A DNA stretch of 64,000 nt from a virus, in the IMG/VR virus record IMGVR_UViG_3300002026_000069, positions 1 through 64,000 of that record; one strand, 5' to 3'. The notes under the pieces are model-generated. The model was not told the origin of the DNA and ran no database searches. It saw only the letters and a list, made by a program, of their open reading frames with translations. The stretch's first letter is position 1. Each line of letters begins with the position of its first letter. A program made the position numbers and the translations under genes. Shown here piece by piece: positions 28,131 to 54,844 of the stretch.

Positions 28131-28916
28131 ATGATAGATAAGATAGCTGATGCCATCTCTCAGCTTCGTCGCATGGCGATGAAGAAGAATCGTGGATTGT
28201 TTCCAAATTTAGGACATCAAGCTAGAACCGATGCGGTTAGAGAATCTATATATAAAAACAATAATCATTTAGTATCTGAATATCCTGTAGGCACTAAACA
28301 GAAACCTGGGACTGTTTTTAGAGGGGAAAGCGAGAAAGGAAGGGGACTTTCCTATACGATGAATAGAGATAGAGGGGTTAAGTTCCAAGAGACAAAAAAG
28401 AGATTTTGGACAACTGATCCACACTTCGCTATAGCTTATGGAGATAATGGTCCTAAGTCTAGAGTTTTAGTTGGAAAAGTTCCTCTTAATAAAAGAGTTT
28501 ATCCAAAAGAATCAGCAGACCCTAAAGTTCAAAGAATAACAGATGGACGCAAGGTTGTTAATAAATTCATAGAAGATGCAAAAGGCGATAAATCGAGAGC
28601 ATTAAAGATGCTTGATAAAAGCGAAGCATCTAGACAATATAGAGATGCGGAACGAACAGTTTCTTCTTTAGAAGAAGCTAAAGGTGGAGTTACAGCTAAG
28701 AGACTCCAAGATTGGAAGAATAAACACTTAAATAATTCAAGTTTTGCAACTGATCTATCTCAGCCTACAGAATTAACAAGATTAAAGAATGCTAAAAGTG
28801 AAGTAGCAAAAAAGCACATTTTATCAGACGATAGAAAAATGTGGAGAACTAATTCTGGAAATACGATAGGCACTCAAGGTCTTCGTAAGACAGATATGTT
28901 TAGACCATCTAATTAA
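28131..28916 (+). CDS. Basic protein with ADP-ribosyltransferase-like motifs; putative virion cargo
   Basis: MIDKIA leader; TVFRGE...FWTTDPHFAIAYG...VLVGKV. Confidence 0.45.
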   Translation: MIDKIADAISQLRRMAMKKNRGLFPNLGHQARTDAVRESIYKNNNHLVSEYPVGTKQKPGTVFRGESEKGRGLSYTMNRDRGVKFQETKKRFWTTDPHFAIAYGDNGPKSRVLVGKVPLNKRVYPKESADPKVQRITDGRKVVNKFIEDAKGDKSRALKMLDKSEASRQYRDAERTVSSLEEAKGGVTAKRLQDWKNKHLNNSSFATDLSQPTELTRLKNAKSEVAKKHILSDDRKMWRTNSGNTIGTQGLRKTDMFRPSN

Positions 28917-35422: not shown

Positions 35423-36030
35423 ATATGAATCACTACGGTTGTATTTACGGACTATTATCACCATCTAATAAATGGTATATAGGACAGACTACTTGTATTG
35501 ATCCAATGAGATATATTACAATTACATATAAGTATGGAAAGGGTGCAGGGAGATGTAAAATTCAAAATGCTATTAATAAATATGGATTCGATTCGTTTAA
35601 GATTTTTATATTTGTTTATTTAGAAGATTCCAAATCTCTAGATTTAGCGGAAACTGGATTCATAGAGCTTTATGATTCTATATCGTATGGTTATAATATA
35701 AAGTTAGGAGGATGTAGTTCTAAGATGTCCGAAGAGACTAAAGAAAAGCTTAGGATCTCGCATACTGGAAAGGTATGTAGTCTAGATACAAGAGAGAAGA
35801 TGAGAAATTCTAGGATAGACTACCTAAGTAATATCTCAAAAGATATTTTAAGTAAAAGATCAGAGAAATATGAGTATGAAGTAAGGAAGCCGGATGGTGA
35901 GTTGATATACACTACGAATCTTTTACAATTCTCAAGAGAAAATAATATTAGATCTAATCATCTCTCGGATAGAGGAATAAGTAGGGGTTGGCGTCTTATA
36001 TCTAAGAAGTCGTTAGACTTGATAGTTTAA
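35419..36030 (+). CDS. GIY-YIG homing endonuclease with NUMOD3-like repeats
   Basis: GCIY...WYIGQT, GYNIKLGG, SEETKEKLR; paralog of 2885..3634. Confidence 0.9.
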   Translation: MNMNHYGCIYGLLSPSNKWYIGQTTCIDPMRYITITYKYGKGAGRCKIQNAINKYGFDSFKIFIFVYLEDSKSLDLAETGFIELYDSISYGYNIKLGGCSSKMSEETKEKLRISHTGKVCSLDTREKMRNSRIDYLSNISKDILSKRSEKYEYEVRKPDGELIYTTNLLQFSRENNIRSNHLSDRGISRGWRLISKKSLDLIV

Positions 36031-37681: not shown

Positions 37682-38622
37682 GAAGATCTGAACAGATTCT
37701 TAACACCATAGATGAATTAAGTGCAGCAACAAGAAAAGGCGAATTAAGACGCCTACTAGCTCACGTTGGCGTGGGCGGCGTTGGCGGTGGCTATGTAGGC
37801 CATAAAGTCGATCTTACTGAAAATAATCCTGACTTAAAATTAAGTAAGGGTCAGAGAAAGCTTCAATCCATACTTAAGGGTGCAATAGGTGGCGGAACGC
37901 TTGGAGTTGCAACTGGAGCATTGCACGCTGCTCATTTTAGTGATTCTCAAAATAAAGTAAAAAATAAGTTATTTGGTGAGTTTCATAAAGCTCGCAACGC
38001 AGAAGAAGCCACTGAATGGGCTGAAAGAGAAAAGAGGCGTGCGGATAGAGCAAGGGAATGGGCTGAGAGAGATAGAAAAAGTCAGCAAGAATACGAAGAG
38101 GCTAAAAAGAAATACGACGACACTTTTGATTCTTTCAGAAAAAAGTATAGTGGATCTGGATCTGGATCTGGACAACAAAGACGTAGCTACGAAGACTTCG
38201 CTGGATCAGCTAGATCATCTTATAGATCTAGACAGAAATCCATTCCAGATATCTTTAAGGAAAGAACTGGAGGCGAGATAAAAACTAAGGCTGATCTCAA
38301 GGCTTGGTATAGAAGGAAAGCTAAAGAGCATCATCCAGATAGACATATGCAGGCTCCTGAATTAGTTCGTAAAGAACACGAAGCTAAGTTCAAGGCTGCT
38401 GAAACGCTCCATTCAGAACTTCAAAAGCATCCAGACTTTGATAAGTTTGCCGCTTTGAAGTTAGCTGTTTTAAAAGTTGAAGGCTTATACGCTGATCCTG
38501 AATACCAAAAGGTTCAGAGAAAGTATAATGATGGTAATTTAGAAGATAAGTTCCAATATCACGCCTATAAGCGTGCATTAGATAGAGCTACCTATAATTA
38601 CCATGCTAAAACACACCACTAA
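37678..38622 (+). CDS. J-domain (DnaJ-like) protein with N-terminal glycine-zipper hairpin
   Basis: LKAWYRRKAKEHHPDR...KFK; GxxxG helices; coiled coil. Confidence 0.75.
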   Translation: MRRSEQILNTIDELSAATRKGELRRLLAHVGVGGVGGGYVGHKVDLTENNPDLKLSKGQRKLQSILKGAIGGGTLGVATGALHAAHFSDSQNKVKNKLFGEFHKARNAEEATEWAEREKRRADRAREWAERDRKSQQEYEEAKKKYDDTFDSFRKKYSGSGSGSGQQRRSYEDFAGSARSSYRSRQKSIPDIFKERTGGEIKTKADLKAWYRRKAKEHHPDRHMQAPELVRKEHEAKFKAAETLHSELQKHPDFDKFAALKLAVLKVEGLYADPEYQKVQRKYNDGNLEDKFQYHAYKRALDRATYNYHAKTHH

Positions 38623-38737
38623 GCTTGCGGCTATTAAAGCTGCCATTAAGAAGTATAAACTCACCGCTTTACCTACCTATGGTGGAACAAATCTATCTAT
38701 GGTTAAGAGCGACTTACCAAGGAATGCATATCCATGA
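38603..38737 (+). CDS. 44-aa basic peptide (not in ORF track)
   Basis: MLKHTTKLAAIKAAIKK...; fills the gap, ATGA-coupled to next gene. Confidence 0.5.
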   Translation: MLKHTTKLAAIKAAIKKYKLTALPTYGGTNLSMVKSDLPRNAYP

Positions 38738-39042
38738 ATCTAGAACTTATTGAAGATGCAATTGAGAAGATTGCCGATGGTGCCGCTATGGCTAGGAAGG
38801 CTTTAGGATCGGCTAAATTAATTAAACCTGACACTCAACTCTCTAAGGGTCTTATTACACAAGGAGAGCATAGGAGTAAAATTAAAACTATGCTTTCATC
38901 TGCAAGACTACAGAGAGATAGTAAAGCTGGTAAATTAGCTCCTTTGGGTTCTGGTCATAAAGCGTACCCAGGTGTATATGAAGCTCCAATTAAATATGAA
39001 CACGATGTATCAAGACCTGGATTCTTAAAAGTAATTAAATGA
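38734..39042 (+). CDS. Leader-bearing basic protein
   Basis: MNLELIEDAIEKIA leader. Confidence 0.65.
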   Translation: MNLELIEDAIEKIADGAAMARKALGSAKLIKPDTQLSKGLITQGEHRSKIKTMLSSARLQRDSKAGKLAPLGSGHKAYPGVYEAPIKYEHDVSRPGFLKVIK

Positions 39043-40433
39043 AACCCATCCCAGGCTTCCCTGGCTATCACATCTCTGAGGATGGTAAAATTACCAATCC
39101 TAAAGGGAAGTTGTTAACCAGAAAGGATGCCTGGGAAGGTTATCCAAGAGCGCGTCTAAAGAACGAAGAAGGTAAGTTCGTTAATAGAAAGATTCATCGT
39201 CTTGTAGCCTTGGCACATCTTGGCGTTAACGACGGTGAGATTCGTCATAAAGATAACAACAGAGCTAATGTAGCCGTTCATAATCTTGAGTGGGGAGATA
39301 GATTCTCAAACGCTCAAGATAGATTAGCTCGCGGGTCATATCATCTAAAGACAAAGCTTGTGGGTGGGAAAAGCCTACTTGTCTTAGGTGACGATAAGTA
39401 CCTAGATCCTGAAGCTAAGAAAGTTTATAAGGTTACTGATCATCCTATTGGCGAAGAAGGTGTGATACCTGTAACATCATTAGAGAAGGTTGCATATTAT
39501 CGTAAATATGCTCTCATTGATTTAGATACAGGAAAAATTCAAAGTGGATTAAATACATATGTTAATTCTGAAGAGTTTAGAAAAAGGCATATAGAGAAGA
39601 AGGCTTTCCTACGTCGTTTTTTAAAACCAAATGTAGCTGAACATGCATTTGATGCCGTATCCAGCGTTCAACTGCCTGGAGGTATGATTGGCAATGCAGT
39701 GACATCTGCAAAGCATGCTTATCAAGGCATTAAACCACATTTAGGTGGACCTGAAACATTACTTACTAAGAAGAAGATACTTAAGCCATCACCTGTATTT
39801 AAGGGACTTAACATCCCGTCTGTTCAGCACGGAGTTTACACAAAGAGAGGACTAAAGGAAGTAACTGCTTCTAAGCTATATCCAGAAGCTCATGAGTTAC
39901 TATTTAATAGATTTACTCCTATAGAGCTATTAAAGGGTATTAAGAATAATCGTAAGTTTGACGGTAATTCCATTGATTATATTAAAGCCAACTTCCATCC
40001 AAGGAAGCTTGTAGATAAAGCTAACGCTGGTCATGAAGAGGCAAGAAAACTCGTAAAAGAGTTTGACTATGCAAGATCTGGCTTTGTTAAGAAAGCCGAA
40101 TGGACTTCCAAGAAGAACGCTGATAGTCACGCATTAAAGCATGCAGATGAAATGGGATTAACAAAAGAGCAATATATTGCTCTGGCTAAATCAGCATTGA
40201 ATGATAAGAAGTCTTTAATTAGCATTAGGGGTGATATACATAAGTCTCGTCATGGTAAGAATATTTTAGTTCATAAAGATGGAAAAGTAATTACTTATTA
40301 CTCAAAAGTGGCTTACATTCGTAAAATTAAGAAGGGACTAGAGAGAGGTATTGATAACTTCCAAGATTGGGGTTATCATCAGGATGTCATTCAAACACAT
40401 CAAGATATCAAAGAGAAGCGAAAGAAGAAATAG
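39039..40433 (+). CDS. NUMOD4-HNH endonuclease fused to further modules
   Basis: KPIPGFPGY.IS..G; HRLVA; HKDNNRAN...NLEW; later modules bounded by EKVA, EKKA, KKA, KVA. Confidence 0.75.
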   Translation: MKPIPGFPGYHISEDGKITNPKGKLLTRKDAWEGYPRARLKNEEGKFVNRKIHRLVALAHLGVNDGEIRHKDNNRANVAVHNLEWGDRFSNAQDRLARGSYHLKTKLVGGKSLLVLGDDKYLDPEAKKVYKVTDHPIGEEGVIPVTSLEKVAYYRKYALIDLDTGKIQSGLNTYVNSEEFRKRHIEKKAFLRRFLKPNVAEHAFDAVSSVQLPGGMIGNAVTSAKHAYQGIKPHLGGPETLLTKKKILKPSPVFKGLNIPSVQHGVYTKRGLKEVTASKLYPEAHELLFNRFTPIELLKGIKNNRKFDGNSIDYIKANFHPRKLVDKANAGHEEARKLVKEFDYARSGFVKKAEWTSKKNADSHALKHADEMGLTKEQYIALAKSALNDKKSLISIRGDIHKSRHGKNILVHKDGKVITYYSKVAYIRKIKKGLERGIDNFQDWGYHQDVIQTHQDIKEKRKKK

Positions 40434-40469
40434 ATTTACTTCGCTTGTCTAACATCTACTATATAGTAG

Positions 40470-41306
40470 ATGCTCCCCTATGACCGACTACTGCGTGGGC
40501 TTTTCGTAGTCCACAACAGACGGTTCGACCTCATCTCAAAACAGATGAGATCGTTTGGGATTGCTCTGGCTGAAGATGTTCTGGAAAGTTACTACCACCA
40601 AGAGTTTATAACACTCCTGGCTGATGAGGACCAGATTTTTTTCAGCGGATCTGAGTTTCATTCGGTTCATCCGAATGTCCTAAAGAAGATCGTGGTTCAG
40701 TTAGACATCGGGGCATACTTCAGCCCCCGTTGGGATATATCTCGCTTTGAGAATATCTATCGTAATAGATTATTACAAAGACATATCGAAGCTTCGTTCA
40801 TAGGTAAGTTAAACTCTGAGACAATCTCACAAGATATCTTAGATACATATCAGATCGAAGTTCCCATTCCTCTGATAGCAGAGTATAGAAGACTCTTCAT
40901 CGATCTAAGCTGTGTAAAGAACCAGGACGACTGGTTTTTTTACATGAGAACTCTTCCAAGAGATGAACAACTATTCCGTAATGCTGTAATTACACAGCCT
41001 TCGGAATATGTCCGTTGGAAGCTAGGATGCAAGGTTTACATTGATCCTCTTGAAGCAACCAGACAAATCGCAACTGATATGTTCTGGAAGTACAAAGAGA
41101 GTCTTACGGATCAGACCATGCAAGGGCTTGAAACCACTCGGCGTGTGGCTGAGTTGGCGTTTAAGGCTATTGATCGCGTCCATAAGATTGATAAAGACAA
41201 GAAGCCTCTTAATAAGGCCAAGAACTTCAACCAGTTACTTCTCTCCTTTGGTGGGGCAGATGAGACTACGGTTGACGATCTACGCATTCCTACTAATAAT
41301 GGGTAA
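40470..41306 (+). CDS. Hypothetical helical protein upstream of terminase (small-subunit candidate)
   Basis: Position only; TTTACT-16-TACTAT leaderless promoter. Confidence 0.45.
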   Translation: MLPYDRLLRGLFVVHNRRFDLISKQMRSFGIALAEDVLESYYHQEFITLLADEDQIFFSGSEFHSVHPNVLKKIVVQLDIGAYFSPRWDISRFENIYRNRLLQRHIEASFIGKLNSETISQDILDTYQIEVPIPLIAEYRRLFIDLSCVKNQDDWFFYMRTLPRDEQLFRNAVITQPSEYVRWKLGCKVYIDPLEATRQIATDMFWKYKESLTDQTMQGLETTRRVAELAFKAIDRVHKIDKDKKPLNKAKNFNQLLLSFGGADETTVDDLRIPTNNG

Positions 41307-41318
41307 CAGGAACCAATC

Positions 41319-41786
41319 ATGTCATTAGAACTTATTGAGCAAGCAATCGAAAAAGTAGCATTCTTACCCGCTGGGTCAGGTGCGGTACTCAAGGGAGCCT
41401 TCTCAAAGGGTTCTACCTGGAAGGGCATCGGAACTAGAGCCGCAATCGGCGCTGGTGTCGGAGGCGTAGGAAACGTACTTCTTGGCGATAAAGATCAATC
41501 AGTCATGGAACGCGCTACAAAGGGCGCTGTTGGTGGTGGATTGGTTGGTGGACTCTATGGAGCGGGTCGTGCTGCTCATGGAGCCATTAGGGGTGATGCC
41601 GTAGGTAAGGTTCGTAGTGCAGTGAGACAAAATAGATTCGTGAATAATGATCAAATTCACGGAACTATGGGAAATAGAAACGCCGATCAATTAGCTAGAT
41701 ATCAATCTGACTTAAAGGCTCATAAAGCTACGATTAGAGCCAAGATGAATCCAAGTGCAACTCCAGCACCAGCCGCCGCTCCTTAA
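41319..41786 (+). CDS. Leader-bearing glycine-zipper protein
   Basis: MSLELIEQAIEKVA leader; GAGVGG...GAVGGGLVGG. Confidence 0.65.
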   Translation: MSLELIEQAIEKVAFLPAGSGAVLKGAFSKGSTWKGIGTRAAIGAGVGGVGNVLLGDKDQSVMERATKGAVGGGLVGGLYGAGRAAHGAIRGDAVGKVRSAVRQNRFVNNDQIHGTMGNRNADQLARYQSDLKAHKATIRAKMNPSATPAPAAAP

Positions 41787-41901
41787 GATAAAGCATGCTA
41801 TCGCTAAGATAGCTGCTTTTAAGCTTAAAGCACCGGAAAAGAAACCGGAACAGACTCCAACACCTGTTCCGGCTATTGCTCCAACGAATGTCCCACCTTG
41901 A
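41755..41901 (+). CDS. Possible 48-aa peptide (not in ORF track)
   Basis: GTG start; ...IKHAIAKIAAFKLKAPEKKP...; resembles the IEDAIEKIA leader. Confidence 0.35.
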   Translation: MQLQHQPPLLKIKHAIAKIAAFKLKAPEKKPEQTPTPVPAIAPTNVPP

Positions 41902-41931
41902 ATGGTGGGATTTTTCGTTTAGTATGTATTC

Positions 41932-43467
41932 GTGAAGCCATCTACCCTTGCTCAAAAGATGTTGTCCCTTAAGGGTGGACCTTTAGACCTGAGAGGCAGA
42001 CCATATCTCAAAGATGTATATGATTCAGATGCACAGAGAGTTCTCTTAAAGTTTGGCCGTCAGTCTGAAAAGTCTACTACTTTAAGTGCTAAAATAACAT
42101 TAAATACAGCGTGCATCCCATACTTTAATACGCTGTTCGTTTCGCCTTCAGCTTCTCAGACGAAAGACTTTAGTAATGATCGTCTAAATCAGTTCATGAA
42201 GAATAGTGATTATATTGTAGATAATCTATTCGACCAAACATGTACTGATAGAGTAGATCAAAAGTCTCTTTTAAATGGTTCGAATGTATATCTGAGATAT
42301 GCATTCCATAACGCTGACAGAACCCGTGGTATATCTGCTGATCAGGTAGTTCTTGATGAGCTTCAAGATATTCGAACTGATAATATTTCGGTTATTGAAG
42401 AATCTGCGTCTCACTCTGAGAGAGGTTTAAAGGGTCATCCATATAAGTCTTTCATCTTCGCAGGCACTCCTAAGACTACGAATAACTCAATGGAGTTCTT
42501 TTGGCGTAGATCCTCAATGCGTGAGTGGGGTATTAAATGCGAAGGTTGCGGACATTGGGCATTAGAACTCTCTACAAAGAACATTGGTAAAGAGTATCTT
42601 ATATGCGAGAAATGCGGACATAGACTATATCCTCAAACTGGACGCTGGATTATCACGAATCCAGGTGCAGCTATTGAAGGATATCATATTTGTCAGTTAG
42701 CCGTTCCTTGGCTTGATTGGCAAAAAGACATTCTATTCAAATTAAATACCTATCCTCAGAATCGTTTCTATAACGAGGTTCTCGGGCTATCATACGATAG
42801 CGGTTCTAAGCCGTTAACCATGGCTCAACTTCGTCAATGCTGTAATCCTGATCGTAAGGATTGGTGGAAGCATGATGAAGGATATATACCAAGACCTTTG
42901 TTTGCTGGGATAGATTGGGCTTTAACAGCAGAGAAGTCCTTTACTATCCTAACCATAGGCGCTTGGCTTCCATTCCCTGAGAAGTTTGTTATTCTCTATC
43001 AGAAGAAGTATGAGGCTAATCTAGACCTACTCCAGCAAATTGAAGATATTAAGCTCGTTTGCGACCAATACGGCGTAGATCTTATTGGAGCGGATTGGGG
43101 TGCTGGTGTTCATAGTAACTTAAAGCTTATTGAACACTTCGGTTCCGATAGGGTTGCTCAGTATTATAACTCTGGATCTCAGAAGAACCGCATTCAGTGG
43201 AATGATAAGCGTCAGATGTTTACGATTAGCAGAACAACGGTAATGACAGATTTGTTTAACTATATACAAAAGTCTCGTATTGAATGGCCAGCATATGAAG
43301 TCTGTCAGGGATTCCTAACTGACTTCCTGAATGAAGATATCGAATACAATAAAGATGGTGTATTGTATTACGATCACAATCCAGATAGTCCTGATGATGC
43401 TATTCACTCGACTATGTATTGTATGTTAGCTGGAGAACTATTCTATACGAATAGGGGTAATAGCTAA
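41932..43467 (+). CDS. terL: Terminase large subunit
   Basis: Walker A GRQSEKST, Walker B VVLDE, coupling motif GTPK, CxxC..CxxC, nuclease GIDW and PDDAIH; TTGAAT-16-TAGTAT leaderless promoter. Confidence 0.92.
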   Translation: MKPSTLAQKMLSLKGGPLDLRGRPYLKDVYDSDAQRVLLKFGRQSEKSTTLSAKITLNTACIPYFNTLFVSPSASQTKDFSNDRLNQFMKNSDYIVDNLFDQTCTDRVDQKSLLNGSNVYLRYAFHNADRTRGISADQVVLDELQDIRTDNISVIEESASHSERGLKGHPYKSFIFAGTPKTTNNSMEFFWRRSSMREWGIKCEGCGHWALELSTKNIGKEYLICEKCGHRLYPQTGRWIITNPGAAIEGYHICQLAVPWLDWQKDILFKLNTYPQNRFYNEVLGLSYDSGSKPLTMAQLRQCCNPDRKDWWKHDEGYIPRPLFAGIDWALTAEKSFTILTIGAWLPFPEKFVILYQKKYEANLDLLQQIEDIKLVCDQYGVDLIGADWGAGVHSNLKLIEHFGSDRVAQYYNSGSQKNRIQWNDKRQMFTISRTTVMTDLFNYIQKSRIEWPAYEVCQGFLTDFLNEDIEYNKDGVLYYDHNPDSPDDAIHSTMYCMLAGELFYTNRGNS

Positions 43468-43491
43468 AGAAAGGCGCTCATGCGCCATGGT

Positions 43492-43716
43492 TCAATCAAC
43501 CATTCCTTCATTGGACTGAAGGAATTCAATCTCAGCCTGAGATACCTCGACATGTTGATTGTCGATCATCTCTTCAGAGATACTAGGATCTCCTTCTTCC
43601 TGCTTCTTGAGCATATCAAGCAACTTCTTCGATTCCATCACATAGGCATTCCACTTTGGTGTGGTTGCATCTGTGAGATCAACCCCGATGATATCGGGGC
43701 ATTGGATTTCAGACAT
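43492..43716 (-). CDS. Small acidic protein
   Basis: Class E promoter and SD at 43724-43745. Confidence 0.7.
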   Translation of the reverse strand: MSEIQCPDIIGVDLTDATTPKWNAYVMESKKLLDMLKKQEEGDPSISEEMIDNQHVEVSQAEIEFLQSNEGMVD

Positions 43717-43763
43717 GGTTATGTCTCCTTATTAGTATTATACCTCATAGCTAAAAAAGACAC

Positions 43764-44075
43764 TCATGGGAGTGTCCTAGCCTTCAATATGGCTTCGAAT
43801 GTCTTTTGGTATTCAGACTTATTCTTGTCTTCTTCCTCTTCCCACTTCATATCTTTGAATGCTTCTTTTATCAAATAATACTGGCATATAGCATTCGCTA
43901 TACCCAAAGCGATACTAGCAACAGCAAATCCGGTCAAGAACCTATCTGCCGCTACATTGGATTCATAAGCATTATGAATGCTATTGAATTCATTTAAAGT
44001 TGATATAGACTTGTTTATTTGAATTCCACGTAGCGTTGTATCAAGACGCATTGGAATCATTGGTTGATATGTCAT
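43764..44075 (-). CDS. Small single-TM protein (start moved to MTYQP)
   Basis: AGGTATAAC motif 6 nt before ATG; FLTGFAVASIALGIANAI. Confidence 0.6.
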   Translation of the reverse strand: MTYQPMIPMRLDTTLRGIQINKSISTLNEFNSIHNAYESNVAADRFLTGFAVASIALGIANAICQYYLIKEAFKDMKWEEEEDKNKSEYQKTFEAILKARTLP

Positions 44076-44094
44076 ATGGATGTTATACCTAAAA

Positions 44095-44156
44095 AACATC
44101 AACCGTGCCTCAGTATTGCTACTGAGGTCACTTTAAACCTTTCGGTGGTTGATGTT
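44095..44156 (-). other. Three-way-junction RNA structure or terminator
   Basis: AACATCAACC/GGTTGATGTT closing stem, ACC-GAAA-GGT and CCTCAGTA-GCAA-TACTGAGG hairpins, then T tract. Confidence 0.55.
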
Positions 44157-44166
44157 CTCCTTGGCC

Positions 44167-44382
44167 TTACTTCTTCAGTTCGGCCAACTCCTGCTTCAGC
44201 TCTTCCAGGTAGCTCTTGCGCTTGATCTTGTTGATCTCGCGTTCGATCTCCCGGATCTCCTTCTGTTCCTCGTCTTCCTGCTTCTTCTTCTCGATCTGCT
44301 CTTTCACGACCTCGGAACCCGCCACCAACATGGCGGCGAGGCTGGTCATGCAGAGGTTCTGGAACTCGCGCTCCTTGGACAT
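44167..44382 (-). CDS. Small coiled-coil protein with hydrophobic N-terminus
   Basis: Class E promoter and SD at 44391-44412. Confidence 0.7.
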   Translation of the reverse strand: MSKEREFQNLCMTSLAAMLVAGSEVVKEQIEKKKQEDEEQKEIREIEREINKIKRKSYLEELKQELAELKK

Positions 44383-44424
44383 GTTAATGCCCTCCTTACT
44401 ATTCTTATACCTAAAAACAACCCC

Positions 44425-44745
44425 CTATTTGGGGGTCATCTTCAGCCGACAGATTTGCCTCAATAACTCGTGACTTGAGTTTTCGATGACAAATCCTGGG
44501 AAGTTCTCCCAATCGGCTATATCGACCTCCATCAAGAACTTGATAGCCAGTTCTATGACTTCAATCTGATATTCCTGGTCTAGAGAAACCAAGAAATCCA
44601 GATGCGGAATCTGTCTCTCAACCATATTGAAATCATCCATCTCAAGATGACGCTTCTTGGCTTTCGCCAGCGTATTCTTAAGAAGAATAATCTTCGCACC
44701 CCGTAAACAGGCGATGGTGCCGATGATCGCCCCTAGCCCTAGCAT
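44425..44745 (-). CDS. Small protein with N-terminal TM
   Basis: Class E promoter and SD at 44752-44773. Confidence 0.7.
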   Translation of the reverse strand: MLGLGAIIGTIACLRGAKIILLKNTLAKAKKRHLEMDDFNMVERQIPHLDFLVSLDQEYQIEVIELAIKFLMEVDIADWENFPGFVIENSSHELLRQICRLKMTPK

Positions 44746-44774
44746 AAATTTTCTCCTTAGTTATATTATACCAT

Positions 44775-45960
44775 ATGGAAAAGAAGTCATTCTTGGGCGG
44801 ATTGTTTATGAAGTCCGGTCTTCATCAGGCTGCAAACTTTGGATTGAGAAGGCTTGGTTGGGGTAAACATTACTACACTGGATCTTCTGCCGCTGGAATA
44901 AGGGCTGCATTAACTGGAAAAGCTCACTTTCCAACTATAAGAAGAACTATTGGAGGTATAGCTCCAGATTTAACTGGATTAAGCGATTATGAGTTATCTA
45001 AAGGATTAACAGAAGCAGCTAAGCATCATATAAGTAAAGCATCAAAAGGTAAAGTTTCACACGAAGATATCATTCATATGTTGGGTGGAAAGACAAACCT
45101 TCCAAAAGACAGAATAGAGCTTTTAGATAAGCTTAAGCAGAATAAAGAATTAAAGATGCATTTTAGTGGATTAGGTGTTAATCCACAATCCGTACTTGGG
45201 AAAAACCTAAAGGGCGGTATTGAGAAGTTCAAAAAGGAAGGTTTAGAACCTAAACGTGGTGCTATAGGAAGATTCTTTAGAAAATACGCTAAGGGACAAG
45301 ATAAGCAAAAAGAGCTATTTACAGAACCAATTGCTCAATTATCTCTAGGTCAAATTCCAACAACTTCAGTAATTAGTAGCGGAGCAACCCATGCGGCAAA
45401 TAAAGGATTCACTTCTCCTATATTAGCTGCCAAGGGTCATGTAATGGAGTCCGGGATACGCTGATGTTGCTAGAGCGAAGAGATCTTATCTTGATAAAAT
45501 GAAGGATAAAGGAATTTCAACAATAGGAACAATTGATCCTGCTGTGTCTGAATTTAAAGATTTAGGAAGAGATTTCGGAAGAGCGGATTTAGCAGCTAGA
45601 AAGAAAGTAATTCTTGCTAATCAAGCTTTATTACATAAAGCAAAGGGATTAGGTCTATCTAAGCAGGAATTACTAAATAAGTATAAAGAAGCTAAATCAA
45701 TAATACCAGAATCAGCTAATGATCCAATCAGACAAGGCATTCTCGGATACAGGAAAGGATATAGAGCAGTAAGGGAATTTATACCTAAGATTCAACCAAT
45801 GAAAACTGAAATTACAAATATAATAAATAACGCTCAAAGAGATATATCTGTTAATGCTAGATTGGCATATAGGAAAGCTAGAGGGGCTGTAGGGGATGCT
45901 TATAGTAATACTACGTCATTAGCTAAAAAAGGATACGATAGGTTGATGGGTAATAGTTAG
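44775..45960 (+). CDS. Lys-rich putative virion protein split by a 1-nt frameshift near 45452
   Basis: Removing one G from CCGGGA gives ...VMESGYADVARAKRSYLDKM..., joining both ORFs (394 aa). Confidence 0.55.
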
Positions 45961-45961
45961 A

Positions 45962-46025
45962 ACACTCCATGAAGGAGTGCCGACAAACTCGTTAAGCATC
46001 CTTTCGGGTAGCTGTTGAGCTTGTC
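45962..46025 (-). other. Structured 3' RNA element (two hairpins)
   Basis: GACAAGCTC/GAGTTTGTC stem capped by CC-GAAA-GG, then CACTCC/GGAGTG hairpin. Confidence 0.45.
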
Positions 46026-46040
46026 TGATTTGTTCGCCGG

Positions 46041-46190
46041 TCAGGGCTTCTTGGCGGCAGCGTGGGCCGCCAGCACCGCCGCCTGTTCGGCGTTGGGCTT
46101 GGTGACGAAGTACGTGACGAGGCTTCCCGTCACCGCGCCAGCCACGAAGCCAGCGGAGAAAGCCTGAACCGGGGTGAGGCTGCTGAGCAT
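46041..46190 (-). CDS. 49-aa single-TM protein (start moved to MLSSL)
   Basis: AAGGAGG SD; AFSAGFVAGAVTGSLVTYFV; class E motif at 46251-46259. Confidence 0.7.
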   Translation of the reverse strand: MLSSLTPVQAFSAGFVAGAVTGSLVTYFVTKPNAEQAAVLAAHAAAKKP

Positions 46191-46340
46191 GCTGATATCC
46201 TCCTTCAAGGACGAGAACCCATGATCTTCTGGATCACTTTCTCTAAATATATTATACCATTTGGAGGGTCCTTTTTCCCTTAAAGTGTCCCTGTGCAGGG
46301 ACATATTGATTTTAGGCTTCTTATCTATACTATGTTTCAT

Positions 46341-47165
46341 ATGTTCGATAGCGACTCTTGCAGGACTTGGGCTAAGGAAGCGTCTGATGCTTATCTAGCT
46401 GATAGCACCCCTCTAGGGGACACTATCGCTGGAATAGCTAAAAAGAACTCCTTAAACCCCAATCAGATACAAAGAGTCGTGGAATTGACTAATTCCATCA
46501 CTCATGCTAGACTATTCCAGAAGGAAAAGGATAAGACCTTTACCTTCCCACTGGCTAAATTAGACGATATTCTAGCTAAAACTAAGGAAACTACCGTGAA
46601 AGTAGCTGAAGCATACGTTTCAATGCCCGATATTCAACGTCCAGTGGAATCCACTAAGATAGCTGAGTTATTTGATAGCCCTGAAGTCTTGGATATTAAT
46701 AAGATAGCCACTCTAAAGAAGGCTCAAATCTACATTGAGAAGATGGAAAAGGCTGCTGAATGCCTAAATGACGCTCTAATTCTAGCCGATCTTAATGCCG
46801 TCCAGTATCTCAAGGATGCCAAAACGGTCATTAAACAGATGCTTTTAGACTCATATCATATGGAAGACCTCTTTGCGGCTATGATTGGGGCTATGCCAGA
46901 TAAGAAAATGGAGCTTTTAAGCTTATTTAGCTCTATCTGCAAGGAGCTTTCAGAAGAAGGGGTTAAGATTGCTTCCCTTTCAGTAGATCCAAACTATATA
47001 TCTTCTCTATTAAAGACTCAGAATATCAGAGTTGTCAATGGTCAGCACCCTCTTTACATGAATGTAAAGGGATATTTCGACCAAGTTGATGAAGTTGCAG
47101 CCAAAAAGAATAGCATCGAATGGCTTGGAAGCAAGATCAACGAGCTAAAACATGCAATTAAATGA
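46341..47165 (+). CDS. K-x-A-rich head-associated protein (start moved to MFDSD)
   Basis: TTGATT-16-TACTAT promoter ends 7 nt before ATG; LNPNQIQRVVE..N motif; KVA, KIA x3. Confidence 0.6.
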   Translation: MFDSDSCRTWAKEASDAYLADSTPLGDTIAGIAKKNSLNPNQIQRVVELTNSITHARLFQKEKDKTFTFPLAKLDDILAKTKETTVKVAEAYVSMPDIQRPVESTKIAELFDSPEVLDINKIATLKKAQIYIEKMEKAAECLNDALILADLNAVQYLKDAKTVIKQMLLDSYHMEDLFAAMIGAMPDKKMELLSLFSSICKELSEEGVKIASLSVDPNYISSLLKTQNIRVVNGQHPLYMNVKGYFDQVDEVAAKKNSIEWLGSKINELKHAIK

Positions 47166-47457
47166 GCATTCTATTAACGGCATGCTGAAATTAGCAGGTA
47201 TATACTCCAGTGTTATGACTGGCGGATATAATCTAGCTAAGAAAGGGATTTCTTCTTTAAAGCCTTTAGTCTCCAAAGAAGTCTCTCCAGGTGTCAGACG
47301 CCTCTCATTAAAGAGAATGGCTATGACAGGAGCAGGTCTTTATGGTGCCAAGAAGCTAACAGATCAAGTCTTAGAAAATCAACGTAACCTTTCAAGAGAC
47401 TATATGGATGATATTCATCCGTATCGTCAATCAGACACACTAAGGATGGCAAGATGA
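47152..47457 (+). CDS. Small basic protein with KLA leader
   Basis: MQLNEHSINGMLKLA. Confidence 0.6.
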   Translation: MQLNEHSINGMLKLAGIYSSVMTGGYNLAKKGISSLKPLVSKEVSPGVRRLSLKRMAMTGAGLYGAKKLTDQVLENQRNLSRDYMDDIHPYRQSDTLRMAR

Positions 47458-48097
47458 ACACTCAATTATACAATGAGTTACTAGAAGCTAAGGCAAATGG
47501 TACTTTGGGTACTGTTCTCCTTGAGAAATTCGCCTCTCTAAACATTAAGTCTGAAGATGAAGTTCGGCATTTATTTGATTGCACGAATGAAAAGCTTGCA
47601 TGGAAGGGTGGTGGCGGTGGTCCAGCACCAACACCTAGTAAATCAACCACTTTAGGCAAGGTAATTCTAGGCTTATCATTAGCTGGAATTGCATCAGTTC
47701 CTATTGGAGCCATGATTTCTAAGGCAAACCAGAAGAAGTCCACATTTGATAAGATCAAAGCTTCTAATCCTGCATTAGCTCAGGATGCCAAGACTAAGGA
47801 TCATTACGACATGCTATGGCATGAGCTTCTAATCCTGCATTAGCTCAGGATGCCAAGACTAAGGATCATTACGACATGCTATGGCATGTTGCTCCTAATC
47901 TTGCTGGAAATCATGTTATTGCCGCTTCTGTTCTTGAACAGCTTAAGGCTTATGACATGATTGATCACCAGATGATCGCTAAGCTTGTTGAAGCCGATAA
48001 GAACATGGCAGAGAGCAAGTCGAAGAGCGGTATGATTCAGAATGCCAGTAACCTCTCAACAATCGGAAAGAACATTTCCGATATGGCGAACAAGTAA
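47454..48097 (+). CDS. Head-associated protein (192 aa after removing a 65-bp duplication)
   Basis: Duplication removal restores frame; EKFA, EKLA; hydrophobic helix. Confidence 0.7.
47759..47888 (+). repeat. Exact 65-bp tandem duplication, frameshifting
   Basis: AGCTTCTAATCC...GCTATGGCATG x2. Confidence 0.95.
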
Positions 48098-48640
48098 ATG
48101 GACGGCAAAAAGATTGTAGAGCAATATCTTAAGATTGCTCCATATCTTGGTGCTGCTGGAACCGGCGCTGCCATTGGTGGCGCTGTTTCCGATGATCGTA
48201 AGAAGGGCGCTATGAAAGGCGCTCTTATTGGACTTGGTTCGTTGGTTGGTGGAAGATTGGCTGCAAAAGGTGGATCTTCTATTGCTAATAGGTTCCTAGG
48301 TAAGGATAAATTGAAATTTGCAAACGAGTTCCGTGAACTAGAAAAGAAAATTGGAACGGATGCAGCTATTCATAAAGTAAATATAGACGCTTTAGTTGCA
48401 AACGGAAAAGTAGATGCTGCTAATACATACATATCTAAACTTCAAACTGAAGGTTTAGGCGCAGCATATGCATCTCTTGGCGAGAATCATAAATATATTC
48501 CAGAAATTCCAAAGGATATGTTTGCAAAGCTTCTTTCTAAAGAAAGCGGAATTATCGGTGGCGCAGCAACTATTGGTTCTTCTGCTGGTTTAGCTGGAAC
48601 CGCATACGCATTAAGAAATGGTAATAGTTCTAAAAAATAA
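48098..48640 (+). CDS. Glycine-zipper protein with KIA leader
   Basis: MDGKKIVEQYLKIA; three GxxxG helices. Confidence 0.65.
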   Translation: MDGKKIVEQYLKIAPYLGAAGTGAAIGGAVSDDRKKGAMKGALIGLGSLVGGRLAAKGGSSIANRFLGKDKLKFANEFRELEKKIGTDAAIHKVNIDALVANGKVDAANTYISKLQTEGLGAAYASLGENHKYIPEIPKDMFAKLLSKESGIIGGAATIGSSAGLAGTAYALRNGNSSKK

Positions 48641-48845
48641 GAACATCGTAGGTTACTACGATGGAATGATTCATGCGGACAATGAGCATGACATTCGCTT
48701 AATAAATACATGTCTTAATGTAAATCTTGACAAAGCAGACGAATATCATAAGCTAAAAGATAGATTACACGCCCCTTACTTCTGTAAGCGTGGAACAACT
48801 AACCAATCCTTTAGGATAAAGCAAAATGTCATTAAATCTCATTGA
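48618..48845 (+). CDS. Hypothetical protein
   Basis: 75-aa ORF overlapping both neighbours. Confidence 0.45.
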   Translation: MVIVLKNKNIVGYYDGMIHADNEHDIRLINTCLNVNLDKADEYHKLKDRLHAPYFCKRGTTNQSFRIKQNVIKSH

Positions 48846-49197
48846 AGATGCAATTGAGAAAATAGCTTTATTATCAGCCGCAAACACAGCAGCACGATTT
48901 GGATTAATCGGTGGCGCTGTTGGCGCTTTTAGAAAGAAAGATAAAGACGAGTCTCGTCTTCATTCCATTCTTAGAAGTGCTGGAACTGGCGCTGCCGTTG
49001 GAGCAGGCGGAAACATAGCTGCAAGAGGCTTAGCTAAGGCTGTTAAATTTAGCCCTGGCAAAGCTGAAGTAGCAAAGCTCGTTGGAGATAAGAAGACTTA
49101 TAACAAAGAAATGCTTAAAGCATTGGCTGTACTTGGTGGTGGAACCGCTGGTAGTATTGGTGCTTATCACCTTGCCAAGAGAAAAGAAAATAAGTAA
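48826..49197 (+). CDS. Leader-bearing glycine-zipper protein
   Basis: MSLNLIEDAIEKIA leader; three Gly/Ala helices. Confidence 0.65.
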   Translation: MSLNLIEDAIEKIALLSAANTAARFGLIGGAVGAFRKKDKDESRLHSILRSAGTGAAVGAGGNIAARGLAKAVKFSPGKAEVAKLVGDKKTYNKEMLKALAVLGGGTAGSIGAYHLAKRKENK

Positions 49198-51041
49198 TGT
49201 TTAAAGCCATCGACATCGGACCATTGCTGGATGACGGCGAATTAGCCGTTAAACTCATGCCCGTTGGCGATGAGGAAAAGACAGCTTCCGTACTTGGAAA
49301 GCATATTCCTGATGAGATCGCTCTCTTCGCTAAAGCGGCTAAGTCTTCTGAAGACTGTGTTTGGCTTCATGTTATCGCCATGACGGCTGGAGACTTTTAT
49401 GGTCCCAATCGTAATGGCGATTTCTTCTATGAAGCTGATCTTCTTGGAATGCAAGATCAAGAAGAAGCTAATAAGAATATTGGCGAATATACTGGAAAGC
49501 CACTTCAACGCTATAAGACATTCTTACAGGCTTCATTCTATCATCATCATAAGAATAAGCCAGATCTAGGGCATCCTCGCTTTGGTCGTGTTGTAGTTGT
49601 AGCTTACAACCACATCATGCATCGTGTTGAGCTTGTTCTACAAGTATTCAGAATTACTAAGAAGATTGGTGATATCACCTATCTTGGTGATCCTGATACT
49701 TGCGGAAAGGCTATGAGAGGCGAACAAATCGCTTTCTCCATGGGATGCAAGGTTCCTGGTGACTATTGCTCAATTACTGGTGTATGGAATAAGACGGTTG
49801 CTAACTATGGATTGCACTTAAAGACCATGATGGGTCGTATAATGCCTGATGGAAGGCGTGTATACGCAATTAATAGAAAACCAAGATTCTTCGATATCTC
49901 AAAGGTTCTTATTCCCGCAGACCCACTTGGGCTATCCATTACTAAAGTAGCTTCAGTAATCATTGGATCTGCTCAGAAAGCTCTGGATTACGGCATGGAA
50001 GATAACGAGAAGCTTTCAATCTTAAAGAAGTCTGAAATAAAGAAAATAATTCCAGATGGCAAACTGATTGGTGAATTAGCCGATCAGCATGAGATGCCTG
50101 GATTAGAATATACTGATGATGATCTTCCTAGTAATGTATTAGATAGTCTAGGCAACCTATCTTTAGGCAAGGCTCTTACTAACCTATTAGCTTCAGGCAT
50201 GCTTGCTTCACCAAGAGAAGTTGGCACTATCATTACTATTCGTATTCAACGTTCTCCTAACTGGATGAAAGAGACTCCTGATATTGATTGGAATGGTGGA
50301 GTGGATTCTGATGTTCAGAAAGAACTCGCTAAGCATGCTGCAAGTCGTTCTTTCTTTGGGCATCTTCCATTAAATAGAATGGAGAAGCTGGCTAATGTTG
50401 AAGAGAAGGCTGAAAAGTCTCTTCCAGATAAGATTTACGAGAAGTTTAACAAGCAACTTCCAGTTGGTGTGACGATGGGTGCATTGATTGCATCTATATA
50501 TACGTTGTATCGTGCCAACATTCGTAGCGGAACATTAGAAAGTTTCTTTAAACTAATCGATAAGAATCCATATATTCTTCCTGCTGTCATTGGTGGTGGA
50601 ACTTTGGCAAGTTCAACCATATCAGCAGCTATGGAGAAGAAAGCTGATATGCACAAGCATATCAATAAACTTCTTTTAGCTACTGCTATTCCATATGTTG
50701 GATCTGCCTATCTGACTCAAAGAGAGAAGGAAGGCAAGCAACTTGGTGCTGTCTCAAGATTCATTAAAGACAATCCAGGTGCTTTGGCTATCGGCAGCAA
50801 CATAGCTGCTTTTGGTGGAGCAAAAGCCCTAAAGGACAAACTGACTTCAAAAGTTGCTCACTTGAAAAAGTGCGCGGGCTTAGATAAGATGGATGTGATA
50901 GATAACTTTGTCGTGCAGCCAATGACATCACTTTCGGGAAGCATTCCGCATTCGATGGTTGGTGGTTCGATAGATAGTTATGTCCTAAACAAACTTCTCA
51001 ATCGTAAGAGAAAAACCCTTCCTTCCTCAACGGAGAAATAA
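49197..51041 (+). CDS. Prohead (capsid maturation) protease candidate with long C-terminal extension
   Basis: NRNGD.F, HH.NK, FSMG, FFDIS.V..PAD, comparable to HK97/assemblin-fold protease motifs; upstream of scaffold-like genes and capsid. Confidence 0.65.
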   Translation: MFKAIDIGPLLDDGELAVKLMPVGDEEKTASVLGKHIPDEIALFAKAAKSSEDCVWLHVIAMTAGDFYGPNRNGDFFYEADLLGMQDQEEANKNIGEYTGKPLQRYKTFLQASFYHHHKNKPDLGHPRFGRVVVVAYNHIMHRVELVLQVFRITKKIGDITYLGDPDTCGKAMRGEQIAFSMGCKVPGDYCSITGVWNKTVANYGLHLKTMMGRIMPDGRRVYAINRKPRFFDISKVLIPADPLGLSITKVASVIIGSAQKALDYGMEDNEKLSILKKSEIKKIIPDGKLIGELADQHEMPGLEYTDDDLPSNVLDSLGNLSLGKALTNLLASGMLASPREVGTIITIRIQRSPNWMKETPDIDWNGGVDSDVQKELAKHAASRSFFGHLPLNRMEKLANVEEKAEKSLPDKIYEKFNKQLPVGVTMGALIASIYTLYRANIRSGTLESFFKLIDKNPYILPAVIGGGTLASSTISAAMEKKADMHKHINKLLLATAIPYVGSAYLTQREKEGKQLGAVSRFIKDNPGALAIGSNIAAFGGAKALKDKLTSKVAHLKKCAGLDKMDVIDNFVVQPMTSLSGSIPHSMVGGSIDSYVLNKLLNRKRKTLPSSTEK

Positions 51042-51639: not shown

Positions 51640-52056
51640 ATGGATCTCGCAGAATACTACGAAGAAGTCACCAAGACCGCTGGCCTGAAAGAGGAAGCCG
51701 ACGTTAGCGAAGAGAAGGTAGCTGCCATCGTTGCAGTTTCCGAACAATTCGATATCGACGGAATCGCTTTCGAAAACGAAGACGAGAAGATTGCTGCCGC
51801 AGTCGCTATCGTTGAAGGATTCGAGTCAGTTGTTGAGGAATCAGAGAAGGACGCAGGCGTTGGCGAAATGTACAACAAGGTCAAGGGTCATCTCGCTGCT
51901 GGATATGCAAAGGTGAAGGAAAAGGCTGGAAAGGCTTACGCCGCCACCAAGGAACACCTAAAGACGCATAAGGGCAAGTATTACGCTGGCGCTGGCGGTG
52001 CTGCCGCTGGTGGAGTTGCTGGATACGTCGCTGGCCGCAGAAGCAAGAGCAAGTAA
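51640..52056 (+). CDS. Scaffold/internal protein: acidic N-half, basic Gly-rich C-half
   Basis: KTA, EKVA, EKIA; EKDA sits at the charge switch. Confidence 0.6.
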   Translation: MDLAEYYEEVTKTAGLKEEADVSEEKVAAIVAVSEQFDIDGIAFENEDEKIAAAVAIVEGFESVVEESEKDAGVGEMYNKVKGHLAAGYAKVKEKAGKAYAATKEHLKTHKGKYYAGAGGAAAGGVAGYVAGRRSKSK

Positions 52057-53692: not shown

Positions 53693-54844
53693 ATGAGCGA
53701 CAATTCAGCAATCCTAAATGGCCTCTTCGTAGATGCCGTTTCAACATCAGACGGGCTTGAAAAGCTCGCTGAAGTCGGTGGAGCTTACATCCAGAAGATC
53801 CTGCGTGAGACTTCGTTCGCACGCCAGATTCTTCCTCCGGTCAATGTAACTCGTACCGATGTTACCCGTAGCGTTGATCACGATGGATTCGTCAAGATCA
53901 TCGACATTGAGCCTGATTCGAAGGCTATGGCGATGAACTTCCTTGGCGAGCCAGATGGCCGCTACATCACTGGCGCTCGTTACGCCGTTCCTTTCTTCCG
54001 CGTTGCTTCGGAAGACTTCAGCAAGGATGAAACCGAACTGATGGCCTATGACTACCCGATCACAAGAGTGATTGAGGAAAATAGCGTCAAGGATATTCAG
54101 GAGATCGAAGATAAGGTCTTCATGAAGTATGTTGACTCAGGCATTCGTTCGAATGCTATGTTCGTCAACTATGTCGGCACCAGCAAGAATCTCAGCAAGG
54201 CAGCCGTTAAGACTCTGATCAATCTGATCGAAGCCAAGCGTCTGAAGTGCGAAGTTCTTCTGATGGCAACGACCACCTGGAACGACGTTCTGGAGTTCGA
54301 CTACAGCGTTCTTGGCTCGGATCTGATCTCAAAGGTAACTGTTGAAGGATACACCTACAACACGTTCCTTGGCCGCAAGGTGATCACTTCGATCAAGGAA
54401 TCGATGTTCTTCAAGAACGCCAAGTTCCAGAATGCAGGAACCGTAACGGTAGTTGCTTCGACATCGGCTGTCGTAACAACCAATATCTTCAACGGAACCT
54501 TCGACACTGCCATCATCGGCATTGGCGACACCGTTGTAGTCTCGGGTGCTGGTGCCAACACTGGCAAGACCGGAACCGTGGTTTCAGTCTCAGCAACCCA
54601 GCTTGTTGTTACTGCCACGCTTGCCAACGAAGCTGCCGCTGAAACCCTGACCATCACGGCTAAGAGCCTGAAGACGATCTACGCCTTCACCGCCCCACGC
54701 TTCCTTGGTCACTTCTTCATCCTGAACCAGACGAAGTTCGTGATCAAGAAGGATATGAACATCATCACCTTCCGCGCTTGGGAAGATGTTGCTATCGGTA
54801 TCGGCAACCTGAATGCCGCCGCTGGCGTAACTCTCGACTCATAA
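53693..54844 (+). CDS. Major capsid protein with an ~85-aa inserted domain
   Basis: LRE.SFAR.ILPP, DIQEIED..F, FLGRKVI..IK, AWED...GIGN; high-expression codon bias; synteny; terminator after. Confidence 0.8.
   Translation: MSDNSAILNGLFVDAVSTSDGLEKLAEVGGAYIQKILRETSFARQILPPVNVTRTDVTRSVDHDGFVKIIDIEPDSKAMAMNFLGEPDGRYITGARYAVPFFRVASEDFSKDETELMAYDYPITRVIEENSVKDIQEIEDKVFMKYVDSGIRSNAMFVNYVGTSKNLSKAAVKTLINLIEAKRLKCEVLLMATTTWNDVLEFDYSVLGSDLISKVTVEGYTYNTFLGRKVITSIKESMFFKNAKFQNAGTVTVVASTSAVVTTNIFNGTFDTAIIGIGDTVVVSGAGANTGKTGTVVSVSATQLVVTATLANEAAAETLTITAKSLKTIYAFTAPRFLGHFFILNQTKFVIKKDMNIITFRAWEDVAIGIGNLNAAAGVTLDS

Follow-up and report, generated by a model that had tools for sequence, protein, structure and literature searches.

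The 64,000-nucleotide stretch analysed here (the window), from virus record IMGVR_UViG_3300002026_000069, is the first part of a single 100,160-bp phage contig, on which structural genes occupy the plus strand up to approximately 70 kb, the minus strand carrying the early genes. Three small plus-strand genes, here named P1, P2 and P3, begin with closely similar 14-residue leaders that end in lysine-x-alanine (K-x-A) and are joined to basic proteins (the cargo). P1 (38734..39042; 102 aa) consists of the leader MNLELIEDAIEKIA (38734-38775) and an 88-aa cargo of pI 10.2 with no glycine zipper, and its stop codon overlaps the start of an open reading frame (ORF) with an HNH domain. P2 (41319..41786; 155 aa) combines the leader MSLELIEQAIEKVA (41319-41360) with a Gly/Ala-rich helical-hairpin cargo of pI 11.0, and is located directly upstream of the gene for the large terminase subunit (TerL; 41932..43467, plus strand), which anchors the head and packaging module and has no K-x-A motif. 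P3 (48826..49197; 123 aa) has the leader MSLNLIEDAIEKIA (48826-48867) followed by a glycine-zipper cargo of pI 10.5, and adjoins the upstream side of a gene for a protease-like protein (49197).

A match to a sigma-70-like promoter, TTGACG-17-AATAAT, is present directly before P2 (window 41272-41300) and a terminator-like hairpin directly before TerL (window 41890-41911). P2 and a doubtful 48-aa ORF at 41755 may form a transcription unit of their own.

Conservation of the leader peptide

The first-pass annotation of this DNA had claimed that the ORFs at 38734, 41319 and 48826 start alike in protein and in DNA, with a 20-nt string in two copies, and that the similarity stops after the alanine, all of which was confirmed. 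Over residues 2-14 the leader pairs share 10, 10 and 11 identities of 13, compared with a maximum of 6 in any of the 11,473 remaining pairs of ORF N-termini, which puts the likeness far beyond chance, and a six-frame search of the entire genome (100,160 bp) with the pattern [LIVM]IE.AI[EA]K[IV]A returned only the P1, P2 and P3 leaders. The similarity among the three ends at Ala14; without the first 14 residues, no pair of cargo sequences is similar by blastp (pairwise E at least 1.4). The 20-nt string ATTGAAGATGCAATTGAGAA is common to P1 (38734) and P3 (48826), and nucleotide identity is 29-32 of 42 positions within the leader, against 8-19 of 42 (chance level) in the flanking 42 nt on each side. 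The codons differ at 5-6 of the 10-11 conserved leader residues in each pair, and no conserved RNA fold was found (the consensus fold of the three 5′ regions has an energy of -1.5 kcal/mol and no compensatory pairs). Because approximately half of the conserved residues differ in codon and there is no RNA fold, selection acts on the leader peptide, and the copies must be old and do not stem from recent duplication.

As a helix, the leader would be strongly amphipathic (93rd-95th percentile among the N-termini of the genome), with a hydrophobic stripe of L3, I6, I10 and I13, and its four acidic and one basic residue give a net charge of about -3. An AF2 model of P2, built from 6 sequences and of low confidence (57.9), has a helix at residues 4-13, a break and then a helical hairpin. 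The leader is a sharply conserved, old 14-residue module, kept at the peptide level by purifying selection.

The claim that the cargo is unrelated holds for P1, which has no glycine-zipper segment and no relationship to the other two, and is weakened for P2, P3 and a further protein at 48098, in which a common G-T-x-A-A-[IV]-G motif makes remote paralogy possible. Comparison of the P2 and P3 families with hhalign gave a probability of 95.9% with the leader and 1.6% (E 0.03, 15 columns) without it, and the residual match is the 15-column glycine-zipper motif; P2, P3 and the 48098 protein may be remote paralogues or merely alike in composition. The cargo had also been described as mostly basic, which is true of the three leader-bearing proteins (pI 10.2-11.0) and not of the 51640 protein described below (pI 5.7). 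P1, P2 and P3 have no Pfam match and a single PHROGs match, that of P3 to a family of unknown function, which is weak (E 0.0015); a phmmer search of PDB and searches of Pfam, PHROGs and NCBIfam with these three and with the 49197 and 36068 proteins gave no usable matches.

Orthologues and lineage-specific leader variants

The phage is distant from all others in the phage collection, its TerL being 31% identical to that of Salmonella phage Arash. No relatives were found in IMG/VR, which was scanned with TerL, with the leader as a degenerate DNA pattern and with alignments of the P3 and P2 families, or in a scan of GTDB genomes. Two retrieved loci were discarded: L001, a remote TerL match of no use, and L003, a false positive in which a FAD oxidase has the common string YHLAKRK.

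Orthologues were found in a large protein collection and in L002, a 20-kb segment of a soil-type metagenome contig 184 kb in length. L002 is syntenic with the present phage for the RNA polymerase, the 36068 homologue, the HNH protein, a 278-aa protein and TerL (43-68% identity). The P3 orthologues are P0002, with the leader MSLDKIQSSIEKIA, and a gene at L002 10001-10348, with the leader MSLEKIADAIKQA, whereas P2 has five, namely P0004 (MSLKAIEQAIEKVA), P0005 (MSLKEIQSSIEKIS), P0006 (MSLNSIEASIEKLA), P0007 (MSLSKIEDSIEKLA) and P0010 (MSLELIEQAIEKVA), among which M1, S2, L3, I6, I10, E11 and K12 are invariant (M-S-L-x-x-I-x-x-x-I-E-K). Conservation in these relatives is usually higher in the leader than in the cargo: leader identity is 14/14 in P0010 with 36% cargo identity, 12/14 in P0004 with 65%, and 9/14 in P0006 and P0007 with 34% and 37%, respectively, the sole exception being P0005 (leader 7/14, cargo 53%). 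The P1 orthologue P0008, with the leader MSLQQIEEAIEKIA, is 96% identical to P1; all 88 cargo residues are the same and all 4 differences fall at leader positions 2, 4, 5 and 8 (p = 1.8e-4 if differences were spread evenly), a pattern compatible with exchange of the 5′ end or with rapid evolution of the polar helix face.

L002 carries a tandem array of four small genes (10001-11524) directly after the 36068 homologue, with the starts MSLEKIADAI, MSFEKIADAI, MSKHLSKIA and MSSIEKIAKAI. The gene after the P3 orthologue encodes a 167-aa protein that has no homologue in the present phage and starts MSFEKIADAINTV; the two further small genes start MSKHLSKIASAAKL and MSSIEKIAKAICDS. The EKIA-x-AI sequence recurs in L002 internally (CEKIAKAI) and at a C-terminus (SLDKIAQAI).

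The leader thus occurs in variants that are shared by different cargo: LIE[DQ]AIEK[IV]A on P1, P2 and P3 of the present phage, IQSSIEKI on the P2-like P0005 and the P3-like P0002, which probably come from one phage lineage, and MS[LF]EKIADAI on the L002 P3 orthologue and the unrelated 167-aa protein. Leaders on different cargo within one lineage agree at 9-11 of 14 positions, those on the same cargo between lineages at 7-9 of 14. This likeness within a lineage across cargo would be expected from leader exchange or from co-evolution with one common partner.

The K-x-A motif marks the head module

The leaders end in [DE]-K-[IVLT]-A, and this motif is approximately 10 times enriched in the head module and nowhere else in the genome. 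The plus-strand proteins encoded between 28 and 55 kb (8,075 residues) contain 23 occurrences, compared with a mean of 2.2 and a maximum of 9 in 1000 shuffles, whereas the rest of the genome contains 5 with 3.3 expected. A K-x-A end within residues 5-30 is found in 12 of 33 head-module proteins and 7 of 108 others (p = 7e-5), and tail proteins are without the motif.

In five proteins (P1, P2, P3, 48098 and 51640) the K-x-A end falls at exactly residue 14. The last two had been listed, with 47152, 28131 and 41755, as looser versions of the leader, and this list was retained in part. The 48098 protein (48098..48640, plus strand) has the N-terminus MDGKKIVEQYLKIA, whose hydrophobic moment ranks at the 96th percentile and after which comes a GTGAAIGG glycine zipper; its N-terminus is a candidate short propeptide of the same length class as the leaders. 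The 51640 protein (51640..52056, plus strand), with the N-terminus MDLAEYYEEVTKTA, is acidic and has additional EKVA and EKIA sites. In the basic 101-aa protein at 47152 (47152..47457, plus strand), the N-terminus MQLNEHSINGMLKLA has its K-x-A end at residue 15. The 28131 protein (28131..28916, plus strand) starts MIDKIADAIS, a second register that it has in common with the MS[LF]EKIADAI leaders of L002, and the IKHAIAKIA sequence at 41755 is inside the doubtful, overlapping 48-aa ORF. Another register of the type K-x-A then A-I is found at the N-terminus MNKLAAIRDAVEEI of a 100-aa protein beyond the window (genome 70546-70848).

Two larger head-module proteins also carry the motif. The 537-aa protein at 36068 has a K-x-A end at residue 22, in the identical place in L002, and 9 internal K-x-A sites; a protein-language-model Atlas search with it gave nothing usable, and the label 'portal' for this protein is a guess. 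The HNH/NUMOD4 protein (39039..40433, plus strand; Pfam HNH_3 at 6.7e-6) has an orthologue in L002 with which it shares a conserved C-terminal module of approximately 75 aa, bounded on both sides by K-x-A (KKA and KVA here, KLA and KVA in L002). It is 464 aa long here and 245 aa in L002, the approximately 200 extra residues lying between the common N-terminal HNH part and the C-terminal module.

The same signal extends to distant phages. Segments of Salmonella phage Arash (137803-156399; L004) and Vibrio phage D181 (150375-162968; L006) have in common with the present phage a protease-like domain, the capsid protein and homologues of the 46293 and 40470 proteins. K-x-A is approximately 3 times enriched in their sampled head-module proteins (38 versus 11.9 in Arash, 27 versus 9.3 in D181), and both head modules are rich in K-[VLQEIT]-A-[SA], as in Vibrio 0275, with 8 sites, and Arash gp220, with 6. 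The residue after K-x-A is often Ser in Vibrio D181.

A protease-like domain and the capsid protein carry the motif

The 614-aa protein that follows P3 (49197..51041, plus strand) contains at residues 27-253 (nt 49275-49955) a domain resembling head maturation proteases, flanked by EEKTA, ending at residue 30, and ITKVA, ending at residue 252. By tblastn this domain matches Vibrio phages D181, D148 and D69 (3e-28) and Arash gp222 (4e-27), Bacillus phage G gp19 (4e-5) and, weakly, the annotated head maturation protease of Xanthomonas PhiXhv phages (5e-3). His118, Ser181 and His207 are invariant in the alignment, a K-x-A precedes the domain, and in 4 of 5 aligned sequences it ends ...PAD...[ET/Q]-K-V-A-[SN]. 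The His/Ser/His residues together with the flanking K-x-A sites form the pattern expected of a self-processing prohead protease. In a protein-language-model search the nearest named clusters were Peptidase_S77 and S80 (0.91 and 0.90), which serves as a lead only.

The major capsid protein (53693..54844, plus strand) was identified by phrog_2522 (7e-8) and the Arash major capsid protein (7e-26), with a match to the HK97-fold model NF042927 that is under its cut-off (1.5e-8). It contains G-L-E-K-L-A ending at residue 26 (K-L-A at nt 53762-53770), and the capsid proteins of Arash and Vibrio D181 have G-L-x-K-E-A at the equivalent N-terminal position. The motif positions around the protease-like domain and before the body of the capsid protein are kept in Arash, Vibrio D181 and phage G; across this wider phage group, the K-x-A motif tied to the leader tracks the protease-like domain.

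Interpretation of the leader

The leader is best read as a cleavable loading tag that resembles the capsid targeting sequence (CTS) of phage T4 but belongs to a non-T4 lineage and has a different cutting code, a reading to which we assign a probability of about 0.5. The 14 residues would be a removable N-terminal propeptide common to small basic proteins of the head interior. Its first part, M-S-L-x-x-I-E-x-A, which holds the hydrophobic stripe of the amphipathic helix, would dock the precursor on the scaffold or core of the assembling prohead, and the closing [IL]-E-K-[IV]-A would be what the head maturation protease of the phage itself, the N-terminal domain of the 49197 protein, recognises. 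Cutting after Ala14 would set the cargo, which is basic and in part of the glycine-zipper type, free within the head, from which it would probably be ejected with the DNA. We infer cleavage, the scissile bond, presence in the virion, targeting and ejection alike from sequence. A broader proposal, to which we give slightly less credence, is that such a system evolved outside the Glu-specific world of T4 and phiKZ, as a portable 14-residue helix with a K-x-A code, served by a different protease lineage that is common to this uncultivated RNA polymerase-carrying clade, Salmonella phage Arash, Vibrio phage D181 and Bacillus phage G. The variation of the tag by lineage, in step on different cargo, would then point to a specific receptor in the prohead core.

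The first-pass annotation had proposed a shuffled cassette that targets varied proteins to the capsid. The targeting part has circumstantial support, in the location in the head module, the amphipathic leader, the head-specific K-x-A motif and the lineage-specific variants. The shuffling part is borne out in so far as the leader stands on proteins with no detectable homology; its scale was overstated, since the bearers number three in this phage and four in L002, and a scan with a leader profile, which the same annotation had suggested, recovered orthologues of the three families and no further ones.

Several results weigh against a cleavable loading tag. This leader-only profile search, which covered 1.84 billion protein representatives, returned only the orthologues of the three known families, P0010 included, although, with a 14-residue signal near the detection limit, the result argues only weakly against wider shuffling; the sampled 68 kb of Arash likewise showed no shared leaders. 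Only three bearers are present here, two of which, P2 and P3, have the glycine-zipper motif in common. In L002 the EKIA is at residues 4-7, which would leave a propeptide of only 7 residues and fits an uncut docking helix equally well, and since the 36068 protein has 9 K-x-A sites, not all of them can be cut. The protease assignment is weak, being based on annotated homology at E 5e-3 and the language-model lead: the 49197 protein found nothing in Pfam, NCBIfam and PDB sequence searches, and an AF2 single-sequence model of its domain had a pLDDT of 31 and no usable fold. The paper on the Arash virion proteome contains no information on N-termini or processing.

Comparison with known systems

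The internal proteins of T4 have N-terminal propeptides, 10-19 residues long, that recur in identical or similar form on proteins whose mature regions are not related to each other; the beginning of such a propeptide directs the protein to the scaffolding core, and its end supplies the gp21 site L/I-x-E (PMC9026906). The CTS (Mullaney and Black 1996, as reviewed in PMC9026906 and PMC3012670) is carried by IPI, IPII, IPIII and Alt and removed by the prohead protease gp21, and its first ten residues are enough to load foreign proteins (PMC9026906; PMC3012670). The present leader is alike in being a short N-terminal peptide on unrelated mature parts, in the basic nature of what would be internal head cargo, and in an ending motif that is also found at other sites in head proteins, including the capsid protein and the protease itself. 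It differs in ending in K-[IVL]-A where T4 has L/I-x-E; the protease-like domain, unlike gp21, does not reach the Pfam Peptidase_S77 model; and the TerL, capsid and protease of this phage, which has a single-chain beta-beta′ RNA polymerase, match the Arash/Vibrio D181 group at 30-35% identity. Given its K-x-A ending and a protease that falls short of the S77 model, the leader would be CTS-like in function and not a member of the T4 family.

In the giant phages phiKZ, 201phi2-1 and SPN3US, propeptides are cut by gp175/gp245 at S/A-x-E (PMC5694885, PMC10052503), and SPN3US gp53 and gp54 have 15 identical N-terminal residues (PMC5694885). The present system shares with these a single (here putative) cleavage code on many head or ejection proteins and conserved N-termini on paralogues or unrelated proteins; the giant-phage protease also cuts itself, and SPN3US gp47 has a transmembrane-like segment after its propeptide, as have P2 and P3. 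The giant-phage sites end in Glu and most of the propeptides exceed 100 residues, while the putative propeptide here has 14 residues and ends in Ala.

Endings in Ala have parallels elsewhere. Assemblin of herpesviruses is a capsid-maturation serine protease with a Ser/His/His active site and (V/L/I)-x-A|S maturation sites, which were reportedly described by Welch et al. in 1991. The resemblance lies in the Ser/His/His residues (Ser181, His118 and His207 are invariant here), in a cut after Ala, which is putative in the present phage, and in the Ser that often follows K-x-A in Vibrio D181; no link in fold or sequence to assemblin emerged here, and the herpesvirus motif has no Lys at P3. In Staphylococcus phage 80alpha, the capsid and scaffold proteins begin with a mimic of ribosomal protein L27 that the host protease Prp cleaves after F-A. 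These are N-terminal leaders of 13-14 residues on two unrelated head proteins with a cut after Ala, but they read KLNLQ-F-F-A and depend on a host enzyme, whereas the motif here tracks a phage-encoded protease-like domain. A leader of the L27/Prp type was rejected for the present proteins, as their leaders read ...A-I-E-K-I-A, with no Phe and no F-A ending.

Alternative explanations

The leader could be a propeptide with no address function, which would prevent basic, membrane-active proteins with glycine zippers from doing harm or falling out of solution before they are inside the prohead, the acidic leader masking the basic cargo while other parts of the protein drive loading. We consider this unlikely: the four acidic residues to one basic in front of cargo of pI 10.2-11.0, and the glycine-zipper segment directly after the leader in P2, P3 and 48098, are as it predicts, and the motif statistics for processing fit it as they fit a loading tag, but P1 has the same leader with no glycine zipper, and the invariance across lineages of positions 3, 6, 9 and 10, outside the K-x-A, suggests a specific binding surface and not mere charge. 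Less likely still is a retained functional helix that docks or oligomerises toward the portal, DNA, membrane or each other, K-x-A being a helix-forming habit of head proteins and no cut site. The heptad-like L3-I6-I10-I13 spacing, the internal and C-terminal EKIA-x-AI copies in L002 and the many sites of the 36068 protein that cannot all be cut agree with such a helix; a sequence habit does not, however, explain three observations: that K-x-A brackets the protease-like domain in five distant phages, that three capsid proteins have it at one and the same N-terminal position, and that in five proteins its end falls precisely on residue 14. It is also missing from tail proteins.

That the leader has no dedicated role and is a leftover of duplication or gene conversion, in diverged paralogues or recombined 5′ ends, is improbable. 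The 15-column glycine-zipper match of P2 and P3 (E 0.03) speaks for common descent, and recombination of 5′ ends is compatible with the leader-only difference between P0008 and P1; against this, synonymous sites in the leader are approximately half saturated while the peptide is kept, the leader outlasts its cargo over long distances, and the P1 cargo has no similarity to that of P2 or P3. An element conserved at the nucleotide level, either a translation-initiation site or a regulatory RNA site, would account for the identical 20-nt stretch in two copies, but 5-6 synonymous codon differences per pair, upstream identity at chance, a consensus fold of -1.5 kcal/mol with no compensatory pairs and the retention of the peptide in orthologues make it very hard to sustain, and it was rejected on fold, codon differences and peptide conservation. 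Equally implausible is an export leader of the bacteriocin (double-glycine-like) type on small glycine-rich peptides. L at -12 and E at -8 from the putative cut, which we take to resemble the pattern of such leaders, and the small glycine-rich cargo are in its favour, yet the genes are part of a phage head module, the K-x-A ending also marks the capsid protein and the protease, and among 20 head-module proteins, the part of the genome that was screened, there was no Pfam or NCBIfam match to a peptidase-C39/ABC exporter. Furthermore, the endings are I-A or V-A and not G-G, G-A or G-S, and a double-glycine leader was rejected.

If the loading-tag reading is true, sequence alone would suffice to list the proteins that are inside the head, and probably injected, in a poorly known phage clade that has its protease, capsid protein and terminase in common with Salmonella phage Arash and with Vibrio phages associated with oysters, and capsid loading by an address tag plus a protease code would have arisen with a code other than x-x-Glu. 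It would also provide a second, orthogonal, short and portable loading tag, testable in culturable phages with the same protease. Arash and Vibrio D181 are suitable systems in which to test the K-x-A code. Should the loading-tag reading prove wrong, what remains is a 14-residue module that is sharply conserved.

Other features of the region

Between the 36068 gene and P1 lies a gene for a 314-aa protein with a glycine-rich segment (window 37678-38622), whose match to DnaJ is weak (E 7.9e-4) and under the Pfam cut-off. GIY-YIG-like paralogues of the homing-endonuclease type are present at window 2885-3634 and 35419-36030 and at L002 13530-14204, and so occupy different sites of the structural module in each phage; the L002 gene sits between the glycine-zipper gene and TerL. 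In the RNA polymerase gene, the 20-nt sequence AGGAAACATCAAGCCTCAAG occurs twice, 26 nt apart (window 27571-27620), so that LGNIKPQ is encoded twice. The single-chain beta-beta′ ORF is shifted in frame and ends at 27598, its continuation in the other frame being the 27739 ORF, while the L002 orthologue is uninterrupted; the duplication may be an artefact of assembly, may inactivate the gene or may be programmed.

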